From positions 32,001-96,000 of IMG/VR virus record IMGVR_UViG_3300045125_000085: DNA of 64,000 nucleotides; one strand, written 5' to 3'. The notes below the pieces were generated by a model. The model had not been told where the DNA came from, made no database searches, and saw only the letters and a list, made by a program, of their open reading frames with translations. The position numbers and the translations under genes were made by a program. How positions within the stretch are numbered: position 1 is the first letter of the stretch; each line of letters starts with the position of its first letter. This DNA comes from a virus. Shown here piece by piece: positions 4,932 to 37,100 of this stretch.

Positions 4932-5174
4932 ACTTTTCCTCCATAGGTAATTGAACACATTTAAGCTGCACAGGCAGCTTATAGGATTTTCAATCCTAGT
5001 AATAGGATCTTTGATCCTCAAAGAGCACTAGTGGCGTACGGGTCGGCTAAGCTCATGTTTAGTATATACGGCTAAAATACGCTCGACTCGTAGTCATTGA
5101 GATATAAACCGTACAGCAAAAAGAAAGAGCGCATAGAGGGAGTGGTATAGACCACTCCCTCTAGCTGTTAGCTG

Positions 5175-5438
5175 TTAATCACCATAAAAAATTTTATTCT
5201 TAACAACATGTCTATTTAGCAGACCGTATTTAAACAACGTCTCTTCAATCAGCTTTTCTAAAACTCTATATGCTAGAGTACCTTCTTTACTATTATCAAC
5301 AATAGTAAAGACAAAATCAACAACCATGTCAGCCTTTCTCTCTAAAGAAATTTCATCATTTGTTGGATCTAAAACAGCCATTGCAGCTTCTTTAGTAAGA
5401 CTAATTCTATCCATATAGGCCATTATCATCGCTTCCAT
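5175..5438 (-). CDS. Hypothetical protein
   Basis: 87-aa ORF followed by hairpin terminator 5136-5163. Confidence 0.55.
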   Translation of the reverse strand: MEAMIMAYMDRISLTKEAAMAVLDPTNDEISLERKADMVVDFVFTIVDNSKEGTLAYRVLEKLIEETLFKYGLLNRHVVKNKIFYGD

Positions 5439-5490
5439 GCCGCTAGAAGATACCTGCTCCTCTATTACTTCCTCTACGTTTCTTCCTCCA

Positions 5491-5667
5491 TCACCGCCTC
5501 TTTGCGGCGGTACTTCTATAGTAGGCTAATATAGTCTCTACCATCGACGGCTTGATAGCCTGATTAGCAGGCGTATTCACTACGCTTGCTGTACCGAGGT
5601 TAAGTCCATCATTAGACTCATCCAGTTGCACTACACGTTGCACTACACCGTTGTTCTTAACAGCCAT
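5491..5667 (-). CDS. Small hypothetical protein (putative early gene)
   Basis: GAGGTGG RBS; preceded by GATCTTAGCCTAC motif at 5738-5750. Confidence 0.5.
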   Translation of the reverse strand: MAVKNNGVVQRVVQLDESNDGLNLGTASVVNTPANQAIKPSMVETILAYYRSTAAKRR

Positions 5668-5759
5668 TTTATCCACCTCTATTAGTGATTATTACAAAGT
5701 TACTATCGGCTACATTAGCTTCGTATTGAAAGAGTACGTAGGCTAAGATCACCACTAGT

Positions 5760-6310
5760 ATTTATAACTATAATTAACTCCACTATAAGCTCTATCTAAT
5801 CTTTGCCTAGCACTCGCACTATCGTGCTCATGCACTGCGGCGATAGCTCTCTAGCTTTATTTAATCTCTATTGCACTCGACTACGTCTCATGCGCTGCGT
5901 TAATTGCTAATTTAACATTATCTACTAGCTTGTGTAAAAAATACTGGCACTACATATATTTTGACTGACTTAAATAGCAGGAGGGCGATGGAGTGACTGA
6001 ATAGGAACGAAGGAGACCGACACATACCTGGAAGCAATAGAGCTGCGTGCATATAGCTGACTGCCTACCTATACTAAAAGAAAAGAATAGATAAGCAATC
6101 TAGCCTCATACATACTAGCACTATCCACTACCAAACTAACAATAGATTAGGTACTATAGCTATCTGTTATACTACTCTATCTAGCACTACAGATGCGAAG
6201 CAGTATAAGTATTGGGGGCGTAGCCCCCACTAGTAGTACGATAAAAAAATAGATAAACTATATATCTTTATTAATAAAGATATATTCCTTTAAAGTAAAA
6301 ATAGCTAAGG
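5760..6310. other. AT-rich non-coding divergence region with mini-hairpins (candidate replication origin)
   Basis: No ORF of 60 aa or more; genes diverge; repeated GCACTCG..CTCATGC hairpins, TGCGAAGCA, GGGGGCGTAGCCCCC. Confidence 0.4.
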
Positions 6311-6320
6311 AGCTAGAGAG

Positions 6321-6884
6321 ATGACTACTATCTTAGATTTACAGCCTGAGAGTGAGCAGATTGTAGAGAATAAAGCAGATAGCAAAGAGACAGTATCTCA
6401 GAATACTGTCTCTACTAGTGCTGATGATGATGAGAAAAGTAATAGTGCTAATAAGAGTAAAGATACCATAGTGCTAGATGGACCTTTATCCACTATTTAT
6501 ACTCAAGCGTTACAGATCGCTTATAGTAAAAAAGCTATAGACGCAGAGCATGAGTCAGATATGACGAGTGCAGTCGAAAAGATGGCTATAGATGCGAGTA
6601 TGATGGGCGTGATGGAGGTGATCGATGAGACTGAGAGAGGTAGTGCTAAGCCTTTGTATGTCTATGTGACTGATGATGAGCACTTGGGTGATGGGGCTAC
6701 TGGGGAGGTGTTTGATACTTTGCGGGTGAGTGCTGAGAGTGGGAGGTATAGTGGGGTGTGGTTTTGTACTGAGGATGGGTATAAGTTGGGGCGGAGTCAG
6801 GTGCTGTTGAGTGATTTTGTGTTGGGGTGTGGGGGTAGGGTCTACTATAGCAAAGAGAGCCTGTGGCGGGCTCTAGGAGTCTGA
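6321..6884 (+). CDS. Hypothetical protein, possibly virion head-associated
   Basis: 187-aa acidic ORF, AAGGAG RBS, IVLDGPLSTIYTQAL segment. Confidence 0.7.
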   Translation: MTTILDLQPESEQIVENKADSKETVSQNTVSTSADDDEKSNSANKSKDTIVLDGPLSTIYTQALQIAYSKKAIDAEHESDMTSAVEKMAIDASMMGVMEVIDETERGSAKPLYVYVTDDEHLGDGATGEVFDTLRVSAESGRYSGVWFCTEDGYKLGRSQVLLSDFVLGCGGRVYYSKESLWRALGV

Positions 6885-6885
6885 T

Positions 6886-8112
6886 ATGGCTGGGTTAAAA
6901 GAGGTATTTGATCCTATCTTTGCTAAAGTGAAGTTTAATAGGAGCTTGAGTCATCAGCAGTATTTGTTTCATACTAGCTTTATGAATAAGAATGAGGAGC
7001 ACTTATTGTTTTTGAGTGGGAAGTTGACGGGAGTGCACTTTATTCGGTTTACGCCTAAGGAGTTTGATATCTTTTATAACGATATGCTGGATATCGATGT
7101 AGGTGTGATAAAAGCTGCGGTGAGTACTGTGGAGGCTATCGATCCTCGGTGGGTGGTAGCGAGTGATAGTTTTAATTTAGTCTGTATGTACATGGTGCAT
7201 AGGTGGCTGACTACTCCGGCTTTAGATAATAAAGCTAGGGAGCAGGCAGCTATTAGTGCAGCTTTGATCTTTTTTTATAGATCTGCTGCGGCTATGTTAA
7301 ATGAGTGGTTTAGATATCCGGTCGATGTAGCTTTGGCTGAGGCTACTTATGCTAATTTGAGTAATCGTTATTTGATACGGAAGTTAGAGAGTTGGCAGGA
7401 GGTGCTGATGTATCGAGCTGTGGAGCTGGTGAAGGGCGATAGTGTGCATAGGCGTACCTTTGAGACGTTTAATGACGATTACGCTGTGGTGCAGCTCGTG
7501 AACGATGCTAGAGGGCGTATGGCGGATATCATCAAGAACATCTATGCGGAGATGATGCGTACTCATCAGCGAGGAGAGCGATTACAGACTAGTAAAGATA
7601 CTACGTTGAACATGGATGGAGCTGAAATTTTAAAGGATAAAGTACATGGTCTGACGGATTATACGCAGTACGTGCTGGGGATAATGCATGATGAGGCTAG
7701 TTTCATCAAGAGTGAGTTGATCGATATAGTGAGTAAGATCATGAGCACTATGCAGGTGAGGGGATTTAAGACTAGTCTGGAATGGATGAGTGAGTACTGT
7801 GGGCATCAGCAGTATGGCGTGATCGAGGAGTTTATTAAGTTAGTGTTGATACATAGCTATCATTACTTCTTGACGCATGATAGTGCGGTGATGAATAGTC
7901 GGGATATATCTGGATTGCTAGGACGGTTGAAGAACATTTATGTCAGTAGTCGCAGTAGTGATGCTGATTTGATGAAGCTGAGAGAGCTAGGGAGTGAGAT
8001 AGTAGGTCATGCTACAGGTAAGACTAATGAGCAGACTATGGCGGCTATACGTACTGGATTGATGTTATACATCGTAGTACGGGCTTATACTAAACATCAT
8101 TACAGTGGGTAA
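6886..8112 (+). CDS. Conserved phiKZ-like protein (probably virion-associated)
   Basis: Intact 408-aa ORF, AGGAG RBS; LTGVHFIRF and C-terminal IRTGLMLYIVVRA resemble a conserved phiKZ-like family (from recollection). Confidence 0.7.
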   Translation: MAGLKEVFDPIFAKVKFNRSLSHQQYLFHTSFMNKNEEHLLFLSGKLTGVHFIRFTPKEFDIFYNDMLDIDVGVIKAAVSTVEAIDPRWVVASDSFNLVCMYMVHRWLTTPALDNKAREQAAISAALIFFYRSAAAMLNEWFRYPVDVALAEATYANLSNRYLIRKLESWQEVLMYRAVELVKGDSVHRRTFETFNDDYAVVQLVNDARGRMADIIKNIYAEMMRTHQRGERLQTSKDTTLNMDGAEILKDKVHGLTDYTQYVLGIMHDEASFIKSELIDIVSKIMSTMQVRGFKTSLEWMSEYCGHQQYGVIEEFIKLVLIHSYHYFLTHDSAVMNSRDISGLLGRLKNIYVSSRSSDADLMKLRELGSEIVGHATGKTNEQTMAAIRTGLMLYIVVRAYTKHHYSG

Positions 8113-27816: not shown

Positions 27817-30800
27817 CTACTGGCCCCTGTATAAAGCGACGGCTTTTTGGCTGATGACTTTTAATAAGGTCGCTGTACTTCCTATTATTAAAGGAGAGGT
27901 AGCGACACGTGCTGTGATCGAGCGATAGCTGAAGATGGCATCGATGGTAGTACCGGACTCTGTCGTGACTGGATAAGCCATGACTTCACCGAAAGTGGTT
28001 TTCATCTGATTGGCAAAGACGCCCTTGTCGCCTACGCCTGCACCATTCACTACGGTGATGTAGATTTGGATCTCAGCTTTATTAAGAGCCAAGGGCGTAC
28101 CTTCGACTCTATACTCGCTATTGACCCGTCCAGTGACTACTGGTTGGTTTAAAGCTTTACAGCGTTCTGCTAAGCGTTTATCACTCGCATCAGCTATAGA
28201 CTTTAAGCTAGCGGACATATCCGCTTTATCCCCGTGGTAATAGACTTCGATACGATCTATACTGCCTTGGACTTTAGCTCTAGGTGCATGATTAGACAGC
28301 TTCTGTAGCGTCTGTAGAGTCTCTTCATCAAACAGACCGGCTTCATTCGTGACGGCATCTTCGATGATGAGCAGTGTATCCATAGGCCCGACTTAGCGCT
28401 ATCTAGCTTGACCATATTCCTGAATCGCCTGGTCAAACTCGACTATGTAGCTTTTCACTTTAGTCGTCTTAGATTGCAGCTTGTCAGATAAGGCTTTACT
28501 GATACTGATGAGTCTTCAAAGGTCTGACTGACTTCCATCAAAGCAGTCGTCACGGTGAGTCCTGACTTCCAAGTAATCGTGCTAGGATCCAAGTAATCAG
28601 GTTCAAAGAAGCCTTCATTATACGCTAAGACTTCGACTCTTCTTAAACGTATCACCGGGCTTCAGTCTGACTGACCATGTCGTGCGGATACGTAGTGCCT
28701 TCTGAACTGACCGTACTGGCGACCTAACTGCAACATGGACTTTCTGTCCCGACTTCAGCTCTGAGTACTAAAGCTTTCTCATCCTTACTGATGACCTTAC
28801 CATCATCAGTCGCTACATAACCAAACATCCCACCCATGCGTTTCGCTAATACGGGCTCATAGCCAGTGCGCACATAAGGCTGATGATAGCCATTACACGA
28901 GACAGTATGACCATGCTGGATACCTACCATCATCAGACGCGTAGAGCTATCTCTGATCTGACCCAGGTGCTAACAATATTCTGTGAACTAAATAGGCTCG
29001 GTCACTCCATCGTTCTTAGGTTGATACGTCGTATCGACCATACCGCGTAGATTAGTCATCCTAGGATTAGCTGATAAGTAAGTATTTAGACCTACATCAC
29101 CACTATCGCTAGTCGCTTCAGAGGTAGTGCCGACTTCAGAGGCATGATACGCACGAGCTTTCTTACCTACGGCATCTTTACTCTGTCCACCAAAGCCACT
29201 CACGGTGATAGCTTCCTTCTCTTTTAGGATACATCAGCGGATTGATATCAGCTGGTGGTTTTACTGCGCGTATCGTTTTGTGAGCTGACATTCTTCCATA
29301 CGGCATATGGATTCATTTCTAGCTGTGGTCTACTACGTAAGTTACGGTTCTTATACTCTCACGTACTGACATCGCTAACTCTTTATAAATAGCACCTGCC
29401 ACACGCTCATAACTACGGATCCGCTTTTTTAAGCTCATGTCCTGTAAGTCTGGATGATAATCGACTAGCAATAACTCAGCCGCTCGATATAACAAGCCTT
29501 GGAATGTCACTGGCTCTTTCATCTCTTTCAAGACTTCTAGCGTAATCGGATCTACGAATAACTGATCTAGCAAAGGTAACTCACGGACATAACGCGCACC
29601 TACACCAGCATACTCGAATACGTTTAAGTAGACATTACGCTGGTTAAAGCTTCTCTAAAGTAAGTCTTGATGCTCTTTTCATAGACCTGAAAGCCACTAC
29701 AGTACTAAAGTCGCTAAAGCATGCTTACGTGAGAAGATCAGGCTTTGATCCTTAAATACTAAAGCCCATTCATCGGGTGCTAATAGTACTCGCTTATTCG
29801 CTTCTATGACTTTAGGCTTGACGTTCAGTAAAGCCATCAAGCGATCTAGTCCTAAGAAGTAACCTAACACTAAGCCTAAAGGTATACTTCTTAGTAAACA
29901 GCTTAAACTCAATGTAGTCTAAAGGTGCTTTCAATGGGTTAAGCTGAAACACTGTAAATAAGTCACCGAGTAACTGAGCACCTCACCATGGTGGTGATAG
30001 ACCATGAGCTCATTATCCTTAGTCATGACGATAGGCTCTTCTTTACTCGTCATACCGACTAAGCGTCTACCATCTTGCTCTACGCTAGCGATTAAAGCAG
30101 GGTCGAATAAAGTTTCACGCTGCTTATGGTCGAAGGTAAAGTAATCGCCGTTGACTCTGACGCTCTTGATATATCTAGCCATCCCGCTATAGGCTCTCGG
30201 TGCTTCAAACAAGTTATCAAACACATCAGCCGGACCGATATCTTTAATAATGCCGTCAGGATTCGTCATACCCTTGAGTGATGAGCTGACGAGCTATCCA
30301 GTCGTAAAGATCATACGCCTTCTTCTCACTGCGCTGTATGAACAACTTACCATAATAGCTCGACAACACTATAGTCCTATCGTCGATTTTTCTAATTGGT
30401 AAATCGACTTTCTGCCTACGAGCTCTATACTTGATACCACCTGACGTAAACTCGCCTTCTTCGTTAATGACCGGTATCCTGAAGTTGAGTACGCTGACAT
30501 TACCGTCTATAGGCTTGATCTTGACACGATGCTGCTCATAAGCACCCATGGCATCACTGACTACTTCTATATCGTGGTTTTGTATCACGACCCCAGCTTT
30601 CTGAATATGGCTGACTGCATTGACGATATCCTTTTGCAGAAACTTACCGCCTATGTACTTTTTATCTAAGACCTGTACAGTAGATTGCAGCATGGTCTTA
30701 TCGACTACACCTGCGTATCAGGCAGCGTGATCTCTTCTGGCTTGATCTTTAAAGCTTCAGTATCAATGACGGTAAAGTCATTGATTTTACTACCGCTCCC

Positions 30801-32086
30801 ATAGGGCTCTTCAGATTCACCATACGCCATCGCAGTACGCATCAAAGAGCGATAATCTGCAGCACTCATTAACCCATACTCAGCCTGCTCTTCTATCTGT
30901 GCTTTTAATTGCTCCAGTACCGGAAACTCTTGATGGATTTCCTCTAATAGCTTCTTGTGGTTCTCTGCTAAGGTAGTCTCATCATCGCCTTTAGCTAATT
31001 CCTTATGTCCGGTACCGCTAGATAGCTTTTGTTCGATCGCTCGTTTCTCAATCGTCTCTAGTACGGATAAGTCTTTATCTACGGCTTCTTCATCATTGAC
31101 GACAGTCTCCTCATGGATCACGCCAGTAGCTGCTTCCAGCCTGGATACTCGCGTCGACGTTACCCGTACGGATCTCATCGGTATCAGCTACGACTGCTTG
31201 ACCCTGTACCTGCATCAGCATGCGCACCATGTACTTCTGCAACTGCATAGGTTTAAAATGCAGATCAGCCGTATTCCAGTTACTATGGTCTTCAGCTTTA
31301 GCATTCTCAAAGAAGCTATGCCAATAGCCCATGTTGATCACAAACCACTTACCACTATGTTGAAAGATCAAATTGACTTTATTCAGATCTTTAGCTTTCC
31401 AGTCTTGCCACCAGTTAGTACCATTTAGCTGTCCTACCCATTTCCATAACTCTAAGATAAACCACTTCTCAGGCTGATCTAGTATCTTTAAAGTACTACT
31501 CGTGACTGCTTTAGCGTGAGTATTTAAAGTAGACACACTCGGCAATACATCCGGTACGGTTAAAATACGATACTGCTGACGTTCACTACTTTCAGCAACT
31601 ATCTTAGCTTCATCCCACAGCGTCTGCTCTAAGTCAGCCCACCTTTGATATTCGGCTAAAGGGACATCGCTATACTGGTACTGATCGATAGGAAAGTTAT
31701 AGTTCAGCAACAATAAGTGCTGAGGGTTTTCATCCTTTAGTCCATGGCTCTCTCAGGTATTTGAACTCTTTATGCGCATGCTGGTAGTCTTGTACTTGTG
31801 CGATATTGAAACGCTCCATCCGACGACTCATGACGCCTTTCGTCATATGCAACTGACTAGTATGCAACTGCTCCGCATGGTCGATGACGATGCTGCCTTT
31901 AGGTCTACTTTTTAAATAAGGTAAAGAAGCATCAGGTCCTTTTACACTAGTATTATAGTCTAAGAAGTGGAATAAGCTATTCATCGGAAAGTTAAGCTTA
32001 TCCATAGGGAACACACGAGGAAACACGATCTGGTTAGACCGCATGACACCGTACTGTTTATAGAAGGCATTGTAGGTAAGCAACAT
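27817..32086 (-). CDS. Virion RNA polymerase beta-like subunit (phiKZ gp178-like), many indels
   Basis: QKVDLPIRKI, SEATSDSGDVG, GIQHGH..PYVRTGYE, GVGDKGVFANQMKT, IDAIF; about 1420 codons. Confidence 0.88.
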
Positions 32087-32092
32087 AATGGT

Positions 32093-32259
32093 TTATCCGG
32101 TAATGCTGGCTAAGACATATTAATCACATCGGTCTCATGCTTAAAGCTAAAAGTACCATCAGACGCGATGTAGTAATGTCGGCTATTAAGAAAATCTTTG
32201 ACTTCTTGTTGGGCATCAGTAGTGAAACACATAGTCCAACTCAAAGTATCGCCATCGAA
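32093..32259 (-). CDS. Exon 2 of virion RNAP beta'-like subunit
   Basis: Reads FDGDTLSWTMCFTTDAQQEVKDFLNSRHYY...; supplies the FDGD missing from exon 1; one probable indel near the end. Confidence 0.85.
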
Positions 32260-32668
32260 CCCAATGTCCACGTCTATCCTAGACGCCGGTGCGCAATGAC
32301 ACCCGCCCTGAGTTTCTTCAGGGGGCAGACTATCTCATTACCCTCGCCTCTTCTTGTGGAATAGCGGTCGGGTACTTCCCATTTCGACGCACACTCCTAG
32401 TGCTGTCTACGCCTTGCTGAAGGGCTAGTCGTTGAGCCTACCTCATGCCCTTTTGGGGTTTAGAGGCTTCGCTGCGTGGTTGCCCAATCCTAACCATGCC
32501 GTAATACGACAGGGACTTTTTGACCCGTCACGCTCGCCTTTCAGGCCACGTTGTGGGGGGTTAGGCTCTAAGGGTATTCCCGCAATTAGGAAGGCACTCA
32601 TCTCAGTTTACACCGAGAGAGGGACAATAGTAAGAAAATATGCTACATCATATTAAGCTTACTCTAGT
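32260..32668 (-). ncRNA. Group I self-splicing intron (IA-like), 409 nt, no ORF
   Basis: 5' exon ends in U, intron ends in G; P AATTGCGGGAA, Q-like GGCAACCACGCAGC, R GGCTCAACGACTA, S GAGATAGTC; P9 hairpin; splicing restores DCDFDGD. Confidence 0.9.
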
Positions 32669-34114
32669 ATCGCAGTCAAGACGGCTTAAATGAGGGAGAG
32701 CAGGTGACATAGCGTTTACCCCACCTTCACCCCGTATAGGAAACTCAGGAGCTACTACCTCAGTCTTTTCCCAGCTACTGTCTAATAAGTAGCGTACCTC
32801 AGTCCTCGCTGTCGCTTTGACATGTGGGTAACTCGGGTAGATGCTACCAAACCCAGTAACAGGATAACGCGTCACGTAGCCTGGTAAAGTCGGTGCTCGT
32901 TGAAAGACCGAGATATACAGTAACTCACAAAAGCTCACAGGACGTACATCAGCTCGATTACGCTCAGGTGGTAGTTCATCTATATCTTGGAATAACCTAA
33001 ACGTACCATCTGGCCCAGTATATAAAAGACCAAAATAGCCTTCAGGTAATTCGAGCACATTATGTCTAAGCTCTTCCTCACCAAAGCGATTCAAGACTTT
33101 CTGTAAGCCTTCGTTAGTCATCCACTCATCGTAGACATAACTAGCGACATCTACCCATTTCGGCTTTAAGGTCTTTTTATCGACTAAGACAGCCGGTGAG
33201 TTAGGTCCTTGAAACACTTGACTTAGAAAGCCATTCCTGATATCAAAGAAGACTATAGGTAAAGCACTCTTAAGAAACTGATAGAGTCCTATCACTGACT
33301 GATTAGGATCTAGCAATCTAGGTGAGTCTAAGCTATCGACTTTCTGGATCAGTGCGGTAGCTACATTACGCGTACTGTTAAAGATCTTGCGTGAAGCCCA
33401 CTTACCTAAGATCATTTTACCTTTGCCTTCCATCATCCCTCTAAAGTAATCGTAGATTTCTATAAAGGTCTCTTGCATCTGGTAGCGTACGACATCCATA
33501 GACTCAGGATTATTCTTCAAAGCAGCCGGATCTATCATACCGGCTAAGGAGATCATGCGTTTATATGGCTTATTGATCTCACCTTCTGAAGGTTTACCAT
33601 CTTCATCATACTCGTAGTCTCTTAAACCTGCCGGCAAGATGATTAGCTTATCGATCAGAGGTTGTTCCCTATACTTCTCCACTAGCTTAATGTTAAACTG
33701 TCTAAGTGGACTAGCTCTAGTCTCGAACACGAGCTCACCAAAATGCTCTAAGAAGAAAGTATAGCCTGTACGACCCTCCATAGGCGTAGACTTAATAAAG
33801 TCTCTATTCGTAGCATCCCAGAGAGCATAGCCTTTACCTGAAATAATATCTGCATACAGCTGCTTTAATTCCTTAATGGCTTTAAACAGTACGGGATGCA
33901 GTAGTCCTATATTTAAGCGTACGTAGGAGAAAGTACGGTTACGGCGCTCATCGCCGACTTTACCAAAGATCTCAGTGCTGAATAAGCCGTTAGCTCTATA
34001 GGTACGAGTAGACGGCTCGAAAGTATCGATCGTGGTGACTGGCGGGATACTGCGCACCATCTCCTCAGTCGGTATGAGGATATTGATATTAAAAGGTAGC
34101 ATGTTTACTGACAT
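32669..34114 (-). CDS. Virion RNA polymerase beta'-like subunit (phiKZ gp180-like), exon 1
   Basis: GLFSTEIFG, ILPAGLRD, KWASRKIFNSTRNV, TRYPV; ends ..HLSRLDCD at the intron. Confidence 0.9.
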
Positions 34115-34155
34115 AGTAGCCCTCAAATCGTTTGAATTATTTAGGAGTTTGTATC

Positions 34156-37100
34156 ATGGCAAAATCTAAAGAAGCTGAACTCGATGATTTCGATTTCGAC
34201 GACGAGCTAGACTTCGACTTTGACGGTCCTAGTGAACCCGGTGAAGATGTAGAGGAAGACTCTCGTAAGCCTATACAGAAGGCTTTTAAAGGTATCCCTC
34301 AGTGGGGCTAAGGACAGAATAGTCTCGACCGAATTTCTCGGTGAGGTGGTCAAAGGCGCTTTGCCGAAAGAATACAGTGAGTCCACTTTATGGGCTCGAC
34401 GGATCAGCCGTAGACCAAGTAGCTAAATTAGCCGGCACTACGACAGAGCTATACCATGACGCGGTCGCTAAGGTCAAGCCTGAGGCTAATCGCGTCTTTA
34501 ACCAGATGTATAAACTGGTACCTACCAGCCAAGTACGTGCACGTGGGTTCTTAGATAAAGTCCGGGGTGCAGTCGGTTTCGACGAAGAACAACAAAGACG
34601 TGCTGAAGTATCTGCCGAAGATCAAGAAATCAGCGATACCTTAGGCAAAATCTTTACTGCGCAAGCAGAGCAAGACTCACAAGAACGTGCTGAAGATCAA
34701 GCAGAAGGACTGATCCAAACAACGATCGAACAGCAACTGCTTTGAATCTGATTCACAGCGATTAGATGCTATCAATGGTAGCTTAGGTCGCTTAGTCGGT
34801 TACAACGATAGAATCAATGCGGCTTATCAAAAGAAGTCTTTAGAATTACAATACCGCTCGTACTTTGTACAAGCTGGTATGGCAAAAAAGATAGCCGAGT
34901 ATTTTGAAGTCTTTAAAGTCCAAGGCGATAGTATCGTCAAGAATACGGCTTTACCGGATTTCGTTAAGCAAAGGGAAAGTGAACGCTTTAAAGAGTTATC
35001 GCGCACTAAGTTTTACGATAAGATCCAGACAGGCTTATTCGGCAGTGGGAGCGGGATAGAACGTGGGATCGCTAAGATTAAAGGACTAATGAAGGAAAAC
35101 ATCGCTGACTTTGTATCAGGGATGAGTGATGCACGAGATGCCATGGGTGACATCTATGATGCCCAGGATATGCTAGGCAGTATGGACATGGGTGATGGTA
35201 AGAAGACCTCGGCGATGGATATGGCCATGGACATGGGTGTGGATATGGGCGCCGGCATGGTCGGTAAAGCTGGTGTCAATTCCTTAGGCCGCAAAGTCGC
35301 TGAAAAGATCCGTAACAAAATGACCGGCAATAATCCGCTATTAACGGATTTTGCTAAGAAGAGCATGAAGTACGGGACGGATATCCCGGCCAGCTTACGT
35401 GAACTAGCGCGTTCAGATGCCTTGAAAGTTTCTAGTGAGGAACTTAATGAAGGCGGTATCATGAACGCCATGAGACGGAATGGTAAGTATGGTCTTAAAA
35501 ACATCATTAGCTTATTTACCGATACCACTGATACAACTATCGATCAAGGCGAGGGCTTCACCGATCTGACTAAGCCAGCTATCTTTGATGTAGTCACTAA
35601 GCGCAGTATCGATAATATCATACCTGGCTACTTAGCACGTATTTTAAGAGAAGTCCAAGTATTCCGTACTGGTGATGAGACGATTTCTTTAACGGAGTTC
35701 GATCATGGCTCTAATCAGTTCATGGATCGTAAGAAGATAGTGCGCTCTATTAAGAAGCTCATGCAGCGTACGATAGCTGGTGATGATGTCAAGCGTCGCT
35801 TTACTGAGTTAGAGCAACAAATAGGTTTAGAGTCATTTTCACCAGAAGCACAAAAAGCTTTACGCACGATCATGTCGAATACGATTTCAGATCGTAATGC
35901 CGGCATCATCGATAGTAAGACTTTTATGGATGAAAAGCATTATCGCGATTTAGATCCTAATGTCGCTGAAGAGATACAGAGCTAAGTTAAAGCAACGCTA
36001 TGACTTAGGTGCAGAAGGCTATGAGGATGAAAACTACAAGCTCAATCAGAAAGCGACCTTAGCTCGTAAAGCATCTGCGTGGACCGCAAGGACATATGGA
36101 GCAGCTAGTCCGTCTCGGACGTAGAGACATATTAAAGGAGATGGGCTTACTGACTGAAGGCGGTGGCGGTTATGCTGCTGTCGTAGGTGAGTTAGAGAAA
36201 GTACCGCGTAAGTTTCGTAAGGAGTTTACGGAAGCAGCTAAGAAGATGCAGTCAGGCGATAGCATCTATGACTTAATCTCAGAGAAGACTAAGACCAAGA
36301 TACAGGAAGACCCTGGTAAGCTGTTTGAGATCATGCGAGATATCGACGCTAAGTTTGAAGGTAGCGGTAGACAGCTAGTAATGGATTATGAAGGTTATCA
36401 GCGCTTCTTAGCCAACCAGCTCTCCGGTGCTGAAGAAGATGACGGCAATGACACTGGCGTAGAAGCCTCTTCAGCCTCTGAAGTCATAGCTAGACGACCT
36501 ACTGCGATACCTACGCGTCGTCGTGTCGCACGTACACCAGGTGTACCGCGTACTGCTAGACGTACTGGACCGCGCACTGTCGCTCAGACTTCTGCACCCT
36601 TACCGACTGTCGCTGAGATATTACCGACCGATACCAGCCACACCTACGACCTTAGCATCGACAGCACCACCACCAGTAGTCATGGCAGAGGACGCGAGTG
36701 ATAAAATCGTCACTGCCTTAGACCCTATAGCTGGTAGCTTAGTAGAGATTAGAGACTTATTAAAAGCCCGACCTATGACATCGATAGGTGTCACAGGTGG
36801 GTGGACTATGCCGATCTATAGATGCATCTAACTTCAGCATAGGTAATCTGCAAAACGTAGCTAAACAACGCATGGATGAAGGTGTACAATATGCCAGCAA
36901 CTAGCAGAGCAACATGTACCTGAAGCAGTCAGATCGCAAGTCAGTGCTGGTATAGATCGCGTCCGCGATACTAACCTAGATAGCATCATGGAGGATTTAC
37001 AAGGCGTCATCGACCTGGTAGGAGAGATGACAGCTGGGGAGATGAAGCAGAACGCTAGTAACGCATATGAAAATGCTCGGTTTACATTAGTCGATAATGC

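Follow-up and report, generated by a model that had tools for sequence, protein, structure and literature searches.

A very probable group I intron without an endonuclease gene inside the DFDGD motif of a virion RNA polymerase gene from an uncultured phiKZ-like jumbo phage

DFDGD is the Mg-binding motif of the beta-prime subunit of multisubunit RNA polymerases (RNAP). In the window (the whole 64,000-nt stretch of viral DNA analysed here, part of a 144-kb contig), a minus-strand reading frame reaches ...HLSRLDCD and then runs through six read-through codons (TRVSLI) into a stop, and the codons for FDGD are found beyond 409 nt of intervening DNA. This arrangement raises the question of how a catalytic loop could be produced from the gene and what the DNA separating its two parts is. 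The answer proposed here, with high confidence, is that a genuine IA-type group I intron lacking a homing endonuclease gene lies in the virion RNAP beta-prime N gene of a phiKZ-like phage, and that its excision restores DFDGD.

On sequence comparison, the interrupted gene is of the gp180 type and encodes an N-terminal beta-prime-like subunit of the virion RNAP. This assignment, already made in the earlier note, agrees with both the PHROG 2986 match and the gp181/gp180/gp178 gene order. The exon 1 product matches positions 1-481 of the 539-position PHROG 2986 profile (E 2.7e-161), and the 49 codons located 3′ of the insert match positions 485-532, collinear with the exon 1 match. A gp181-like gene is located divergently upstream and a gp178-like beta gene (PHROG 3148) directly downstream, as in phiKZ. 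Genes of the gp180 type were found by tblastn in 309 jumbo-phage records, RP12 being the best (45%), and the exon 1 product is 35% identical to PHIKZ180 in alignment. The source is an uncultured phiKZ-like (nucleus-forming) jumbo phage. The probable start codon is the ATG at 34114 (MSVNMLPFN...), favoured because it matches the start of the closest homologue (MSANMLPFN); an upstream in-frame TTG at 34126 is an alternative and would give 486 codons versus 482 from the ATG.

The insert between the two RNAP exons is 409 nt long (window 32668-32260, minus strand) and its last base is the G at 32260. The last codon of exon 1 is GAT (32671-32669, minus strand), so that the last exon base is U(-1) of the 5′ splice site; exon 2 starts at 32259 on the same strand with TTC GAT GGC GAT ACT. 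On re-reading, the coordinates and strings first reported for this DFDGD-splitting insert proved exact. When the exons are joined in silico, the frame reads ...RLDCDFDGDTLSW... (RLDCD followed by FDGDTLSW), and no gap is needed to align this product with its uninterrupted counterparts in Ralstonia phage RP12 and Burkholderia phage FLC9 (...LGAD/FDGDT..., where the slash here and below marks the insertion point). The junction is supported to the base by the collinearity of the joined frame with intron-less RP12, FLC9 and the closest homologue. At the 3′ splice site the terminal G (omega-G, intron position 409, window 32260) lies immediately 5′ of TTCGATGG. U(-1) is the last exon base, and a terminal G directly precedes TTY GAY GG, in all seven D/FDGD introns whose junction nucleotides were read: the window intron and those of RTH11, LucasX, phiKZ, Goslar, Yong MS31 and contig L017, described below.

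The group I identity suggested in the earlier note is upheld by a covariance-model search. The Rfam family RF00028 (Intron_gpI) matches 32306-32641 on the minus strand with 59.8 bits, above the gathering score of 50, over model positions 1-253 of 253 (E 1.2e-12, computed over the whole window). No second Rfam hit above threshold was obtained in the window or in the whole 144-kb contig. The features of the locus are as follows; intron position n corresponds to window coordinate 32669-n.

32669..34114, minus strand: exon 1, phiKZ gp180 homologue (PHROG 2986, tblastn and start match)
32260..32668, minus strand: very probable group I intron without an endonuclease ORF (Rfam full model, base-by-base helix check)
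32629..32663, minus strand: P1 extension hairpin, intron 6-40, AGUAAG/CUUACU and AAUAUG/CAUAUU; pairs 6-11/35-40 and 15-20/27-32 (fold and pair check)
32623..32628, minus strand: internal guide sequence AUUGUC, intron 41-46, 3′ strand of P1; predicted P1 pairs G-3:C46, A-2:U45, U-1.G44, A1:U43 and U3:A41 (RNAfold and pair check)
32601..32618, minus strand: P2 hairpin, intron 51-68; pairs 51-56/63-68 (pair check; compensatory changes across nine introns)
32436..32593, minus strand: P3 5′ strand (76-82) and P4-P5-P6 domain (84-233); pairs of P3 76-82/288-294 (CUUCCUA/UGGGAAG), P4 85-90/190-196, P5 95-97/184-186 and P5a, the extended P5 arm, 104-110/174-180; P6, P6a and P6b within 197-233 (Rfam alignment and pair check)
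32375..32430, minus strand: P7 5′ strand (239-243), P7.1 (245-259), P7.2 (262-283) and P3 3′ strand (288-294); pairs of P7 239-243/337-341 (GACUA/UAGUC), P7.1 245-249/254-259 and P7.2 262-269/277-283
32306..32374, minus strand: P8 (295-330), J8/7 (331-336), P7 3′ strand (337-341, UAGUC) and P9 (346-363); pairs of P8 295-305/322-330 and P9 346-351/358-363
32260..32305, minus strand: P9.1 (366-381), P9.2 (383-399) and 3′ tail with terminal G (409); pairs of P9.1 366-370/377-381 and P9.2 383-389/393-399
32110..32259, minus strand: exon 2, FDGDTLSW...DVINMS and stop (PHROG 2986 485-532, alignment with RP12 and FLC9)

Checked base by base, the helices from P1 to P9.2 are fully paired, except for a non-pairing C2/U42 inside P1. 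The conserved core helices P3-P9, including the P3/P7 pseudoknot, are all present, and the P3, P7, additional stems between P7 and P3, and P9 described previously were all recovered as fully paired elements. Two hairpins, P7.1 and P7.2, between P7 and the 3′ strand of P3 are a mark of subgroup IA; both are present and paired here, and the intron has an IA-type architecture.

In the minimum-energy RNAfold structure of the 5′ end, the splice site carries a U.G wobble between U(-1) and G44 (32625), flanked by G-3:C46, A-2:U45 and A1:U43, the exon part of P1 being only 3 bp. The earlier note had seen no clear U.G pair in P1 and had given U-A as the best pairing; this must be revised, since U(-1) pairs with G44 and not with an A. 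The fold z-score of the intron 5′ end is unremarkable by itself (-0.87), and support for the predicted P1 comes instead from its fit to the P1 rule and from conservation of the guide: the GUCC motif is found just 5′ of P2 in nine of nine aligned introns. No convincing complement of UUCGAU in the 3′ exon, which would form P10, was found next to the guide. P10 is weak in many natural group I introns. The guide segment UGUCC (intron 43-47, 32622-32626) can alternatively pair with GGACA (400-404, 32265-32269), five to nine bases before the terminal G, and both strands are kept in the L017 sibling. This pairing may be fortuitous, or it could substitute for P10 by keeping the 3′ splice site close to the guide.

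The sibling intron is located on a MAG contig (L017, JBPCSC010000301.1), in a gene whose protein is 78% identical to that of the window; it is 402 nt long, ORF-less, inserted at the same nucleotide position and scores 65.8 bits with the Rfam model. The two introns share the guide region, P3, P7.1, P8 and J8/7, which reads GAGAUAGUC in the window and UAUAGUC in the eight other introns of a nine-intron alignment. Because L017 has the same J8/7 change, this is a lineage trait and not an error. P1ext, P2, P6, P7.2, P8, P9 and P9.2 differ between the two introns yet stay paired, and both bases of 20 of the 86 predicted pairs have changed without loss of pairing, among them three in the P1 extension and four in P9, with others in P7.2. 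Identity between the two is about 59% in the intron and 71% in exon 1, so that nothing suggests a recent transfer between the two lineages. The nine aligned introns of this gene region have their core blocks in common. From them RNAalifold recovered P2 through P6, and compensatory changes fall in P2, P3, P5 and P6; P4 and P7 are invariant and hence uninformative on covariation. The MAFFT alignment of the nine introns is out of register in P8-P9, and covariation was taken from RNAalifold and from base-by-base checks. Pair counts from two sequences are modest evidence, yet they agree with the nine-intron set. L017 itself is a 10-kb contig that was binned as part of a Methylococcaceae MAG; it encodes jumbo-phage virion RNAP genes and is therefore phage DNA, and its binning may point to methanotrophs as hosts of this phage lineage.

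Intron-less alleles are found among the relatives. The closest homologue in a large protein collection (P0001, 537 aa, 92% identical) is uninterrupted and reads straight through ...HLSRLDCDFDGDTLSW..., which includes the unusual DCD and equals the predicted ligation product. A JGI contig (L016, 80% identity) provides an intron-less allele at the DNA level, ...GAAGGGGAT/TTTGACGGCGAT... (GGGGAT/TTTGAC). The intron is absent in relatives of 92%, 80% and 79% identity and present in the window and in the 78% relative, a patchy distribution that would reflect past mobility or loss. IMG/VR yielded one relative only (49% identity), and blastn of the gene region against phage records gave no near relatives by DNA.

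The longest sense ORF within the intron is of 52 aa and overlaps P3-P6. Neither this ORF nor an antisense one of 74 aa has a Pfam match, in agreement with the view put forward earlier that the insert carries no homing endonuclease ORF. No HNH_3 match was obtained in the 144-kb contig, which CheckV rates as about 49% complete, or about half a genome. The window intron either lost an endonuclease or never had one.

The surroundings of the intron contain a number of frame breaks. The gp178-like beta gene (window 27823-32086, minus strand) is broken up; its pieces are collinear, the frame switches at least seven times and some in-frame stops occur. The gp181-like gene (34300-34800, plus strand) passes from frame 2 to 3 to 1 relative to RP12 ORF043, so the breaks are not confined to RNAP genes. 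Exon 2 ends with ...DVINMS and a stop where P0001 reads ...DVIKYVLASITG, with a stop just before the ATG of the beta gene (32086); the 3′ end of exon 2 was probably cut short by the loss of 1 nt from an A run near 32119-32121. At this exactly placed break (about 32120) the A run is AA, against a lysine codon in the 92% relative. The contig has few homopolymer runs, and in L016 and L017 (78-80% identity) the beta gene is open over the stretch examined. The frame breaks look like assembly indel errors rather than decay. Their number in the neighbouring genes implies that single-base errors inside the intron are possible. Two other explanations of the breaks were rejected: an alternative genetic code, as freeing TAG, TGA or TAA raises long-ORF coverage about equally and none is favoured, and further introns in the beta gene, as its pieces are collinear along PHROG 3148, no DNA is inserted between them and Rfam gave no second intron.

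The same frame switches in the beta and gp181-like genes and the 1-nt shift in exon 2, together with a J8/7 that departs from the family consensus at a single conserved base, could be taken to mean that the ribozyme is a decayed, non-splicing remnant and that this copy of the RNAP gene, or the contig as a whole, is dead or defective. This is improbable. None of the core or peripheral helices is disrupted, exon 1 stays open over 482 codons, the J8/7 variant recurs in the independent L017 sibling, where the flanking genes are open over the stretch examined, and the compensatory changes between the two introns argue for selection on the fold. Moreover, the placed break in an A run and the scarcity of homopolymers look like indel sequencing error, and the beta gene of the relatives is open. 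Mis-assembly of foreign intron DNA into the contig could be invoked in view of an error-prone metagenomic assembly that is about 49% complete. It is hardly credible, however, given that a sibling intron occupies the identical nucleotide position in L017, which was assembled independently, that introns are found there in at least six public phage genomes and that the insertion respects the reading frame to the base.

A gene that is truly split and unspliced, with the downstream piece translated from a GTG at 32271 and joining the enzyme as a separate peptide, is very unlikely for other reasons. An ORF of 53 aa does start at this GTG (32110-32271), preceded by AGGA five bases upstream; the equivalent piece is annotated as a CDS of its own in the records of RTH11, LucasX, VP4B, PDCC-1 and Yong MS31; and RNAP subunits of jumbo phages are split elsewhere (PMC7598289). 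However, the two pieces are separated exactly by a conserved, covarying ribozyme whose splice-site bases are correct, and about 68 of the best 120 homologues have both parts fused with no extra residues. To our knowledge, there is no precedent for a catalytic metal-binding loop divided between two chains.

With a group I intron as the preferred reading, self-splicing would follow the standard two-step, guanosine-initiated pathway. The exon end GAU of the pre-mRNA would pair with the GUC guide of the intron, with the U.G wobble at the splice site. An external guanosine would attack at the 5′ splice site, after which the terminal G would dock and the exons would join into the single frame described above. 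From the exon ends as read, the ligated junction predicted in the mRNA is TGCGAT/TTCGATGGC. Only the spliced mRNA would give a subunit with an intact Mg-binding loop, and we infer on sound grounds that splicing would be required for an active virion RNAP, since without it the Mg-binding motif stays split, and the gene is uninterrupted in the nearest relative. The empty intron possibly shields the site from homing nucleases, as suggested in the earlier note, which is consistent with the heavy occupation of the site in other phages:

phiKZ: D/FDGD; 92.2 bits; ORF gp179, HNH_3
Goslar (Goslar_00229/00230): D/FDGD; 67.7 bits; HNH ORF; record has an Intron_gpI ncRNA feature
Vibrio phage Yong MS31: D/FDGD; 69.9 bits; HNH ORF
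Xanthomonas phage RTH11: D/FDGD; 68.9 bits; no ORF
Xanthomonas phage LucasX: D/FDGD; 56.8 bits; no ORF
Contig L020: D/FDGD, site read from translation only; 44.6 bits (below cut-off); no ORF seen
Contig L019: DYD/GD; 70.8 bits; ORF-less
VP4B: DxDGD/, junction not placed to the base; 51.2 bits; ORF-less
FishSpeaker: DxDGD/; 53.9 bits; HNH ORF
Aeromonas phage ZPAH34 (about 4950-5260 in its stretch): FDG/D; insert of about 300 nt, no Rfam hit

The statement in the earlier note that introns with endonucleases occur in RNAP genes of phiKZ-like phages holds in an even stronger sense: the HNH intron with gp179 of phiKZ is located at exactly D/FDGD. This site is thus not new, being occupied in phiKZ itself, and is less novel than was first implied; as judged from its sequence, the window intron is related to the gp179 intron, shares its site and lacks an ORF. 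When insertion sites and ORF content are mapped across gp180 homologues, D/FDGD indeed proves common, but it is not the only site, since DFD/GD, DFDG/D and DFDGD/ are used as well. About 52 of the best 120 homologues are cut within the motif and about 68 read through it without extra residues; the stops in this set fall after the first D (about 28), after DFD (17), after DFDG (2) and after DFDGD (2). In an even sample of 60 of 313 phage records, about 10 stop at the motif. The interruption of about 52 of the 120 closest homologues within the motif identifies it as an intron hotspot.

In ZPAH34, exon 1 ends with ...GGDFDG and homology resumes at DQLSANS..., with U(-1) and a G before exon 2. The insert gave no Rfam hit even at E 0.01, and it may be a very reduced or divergent intron. 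In Photobacterium phage PDCC-1 (4926-6640), exon 1 ends with ...RLGGD on a GAC codon, which places a C at -1. Beyond it lie an HNH ORF and a group I hit of 38.7 bits, below the threshold; the CDS resembling exon 2 begins ...VVDNKQLNS, and no FDG codons were found in between. This may represent two introns with a tiny exon, or an error. RTH11 (5063-6364), LucasX (5559-6899) and Yong MS31 (6558-7946) have an extra ORF of 430-460 aa between exon 2 and the beta gene. The RTH11 copy, the only one scanned, has no Pfam match, and the window has no such gene.

The three insertion points checked on DNA each follow a GAU codon with which the shared GUC guide could pair. It may tentatively be proposed, with somewhat less than even weight, that the DFDGD stretch of about 12 nt in the chimallivirus virion RNAP beta-prime gene is a contested hotspot where related group I introns have at least three, probably four, adjacent insertion points, and in which ORF-less copies are maintained across long divergence by selection for splicing and possibly act as immunity alleles against the HNH endonucleases of ORF-bearing copies. 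No paper describing DFDGD as a multi-position intron hotspot was found in the literature. This wider pattern is a more interesting lead than the single intron, which by itself is an element of an expected kind, the type phage already having an intron at this site. Occupation of several sites by introns with and without HNH genes would provide a natural system for the study of intron-endonuclease competition between co-infecting jumbo phages.

Infection cannot start without the virion RNA polymerase. With an intron in the metal-binding motif of this enzyme, early expression in the next cycle would depend on splicing inside the phage nucleus. The intron also affects annotation. Exon 2 of phiKZ (AF399011, 6399-6590, FDGDTVSF...PKQRD and stop) is unannotated, and in RTH11, LucasX, VP4B, PDCC-1 and Yong MS31 it is annotated as a separate small hypothetical protein. 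As a result, the public beta-prime N proteins of these phages lack the catalytic motif. For this phage, phiKZ and these five others, beta-prime N would be mis-annotated, the spliced product being the real gene.

Among known systems, the classical phage introns of T4 td, T4 nrdB, Twort nrdE, Twort orf142 and the SPO1 DNA polymerase gene resemble the window intron in having P7.1/P7.2 and in interrupting the conserved catalytic region of an essential gene. These classical IA introns are in other host genes and have no wider sequence similarity to the window intron; the blastn matches to the Twort nrdE and SPO1-like introns are short and lie in the core. Closer in kind are the introns of RTH11, LucasX and L017, which are at the same site, ORF-less and of similar size (about 400 nt). 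None of the three records annotates the intron, and their P1 extension, P5 arm and P9-P9.2 sequences differ from those of the window.

The introns of phiKZ, Goslar and Yong MS31 share with the window the host gene, the GAT/TTY GAY GG junction, U(-1) and the terminal G, as well as the GUCC guide, P7.1/P7.2 and the blocks AAUUGCxGG, CAGCAGC, UCAACGACUA and AUAGUCU. Unlike the window, which has a 35-nt hairpin there, they carry an ORF of 315-490 aa with HNH_3, with or without NUMOD1, between the 5′ splice site and the guide, and their host proteins are only about 35% identical to that of the window. In the literature, gp179 of phiKZ is treated as an intron-encoded endonuclease in the virion RNAP operon and gp180 as intron-bearing (PMC11512511; bioRxiv 10.1101/2025.11.23.690004); ONT-cappable-seq detected no splicing at the gp179 locus under the conditions used (PMC10914365). 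A related case is the gp210 intron of PhiPA3. Like the window intron, it is of group I, interrupts a virion RNAP gene of a chimallivirus and is inserted beside conserved catalytic aspartates; unlike it, it lies in the beta subunit gene (a gp178 homologue), carries an endonuclease and has experimental support. During co-infection, the HNH endonuclease of the gp210 intron attacks the allele of the other phage, which has no intron (Birkholz et al. 2024, PMC11620839). The pattern observed at DFDGD extends this single beta-subunit case.
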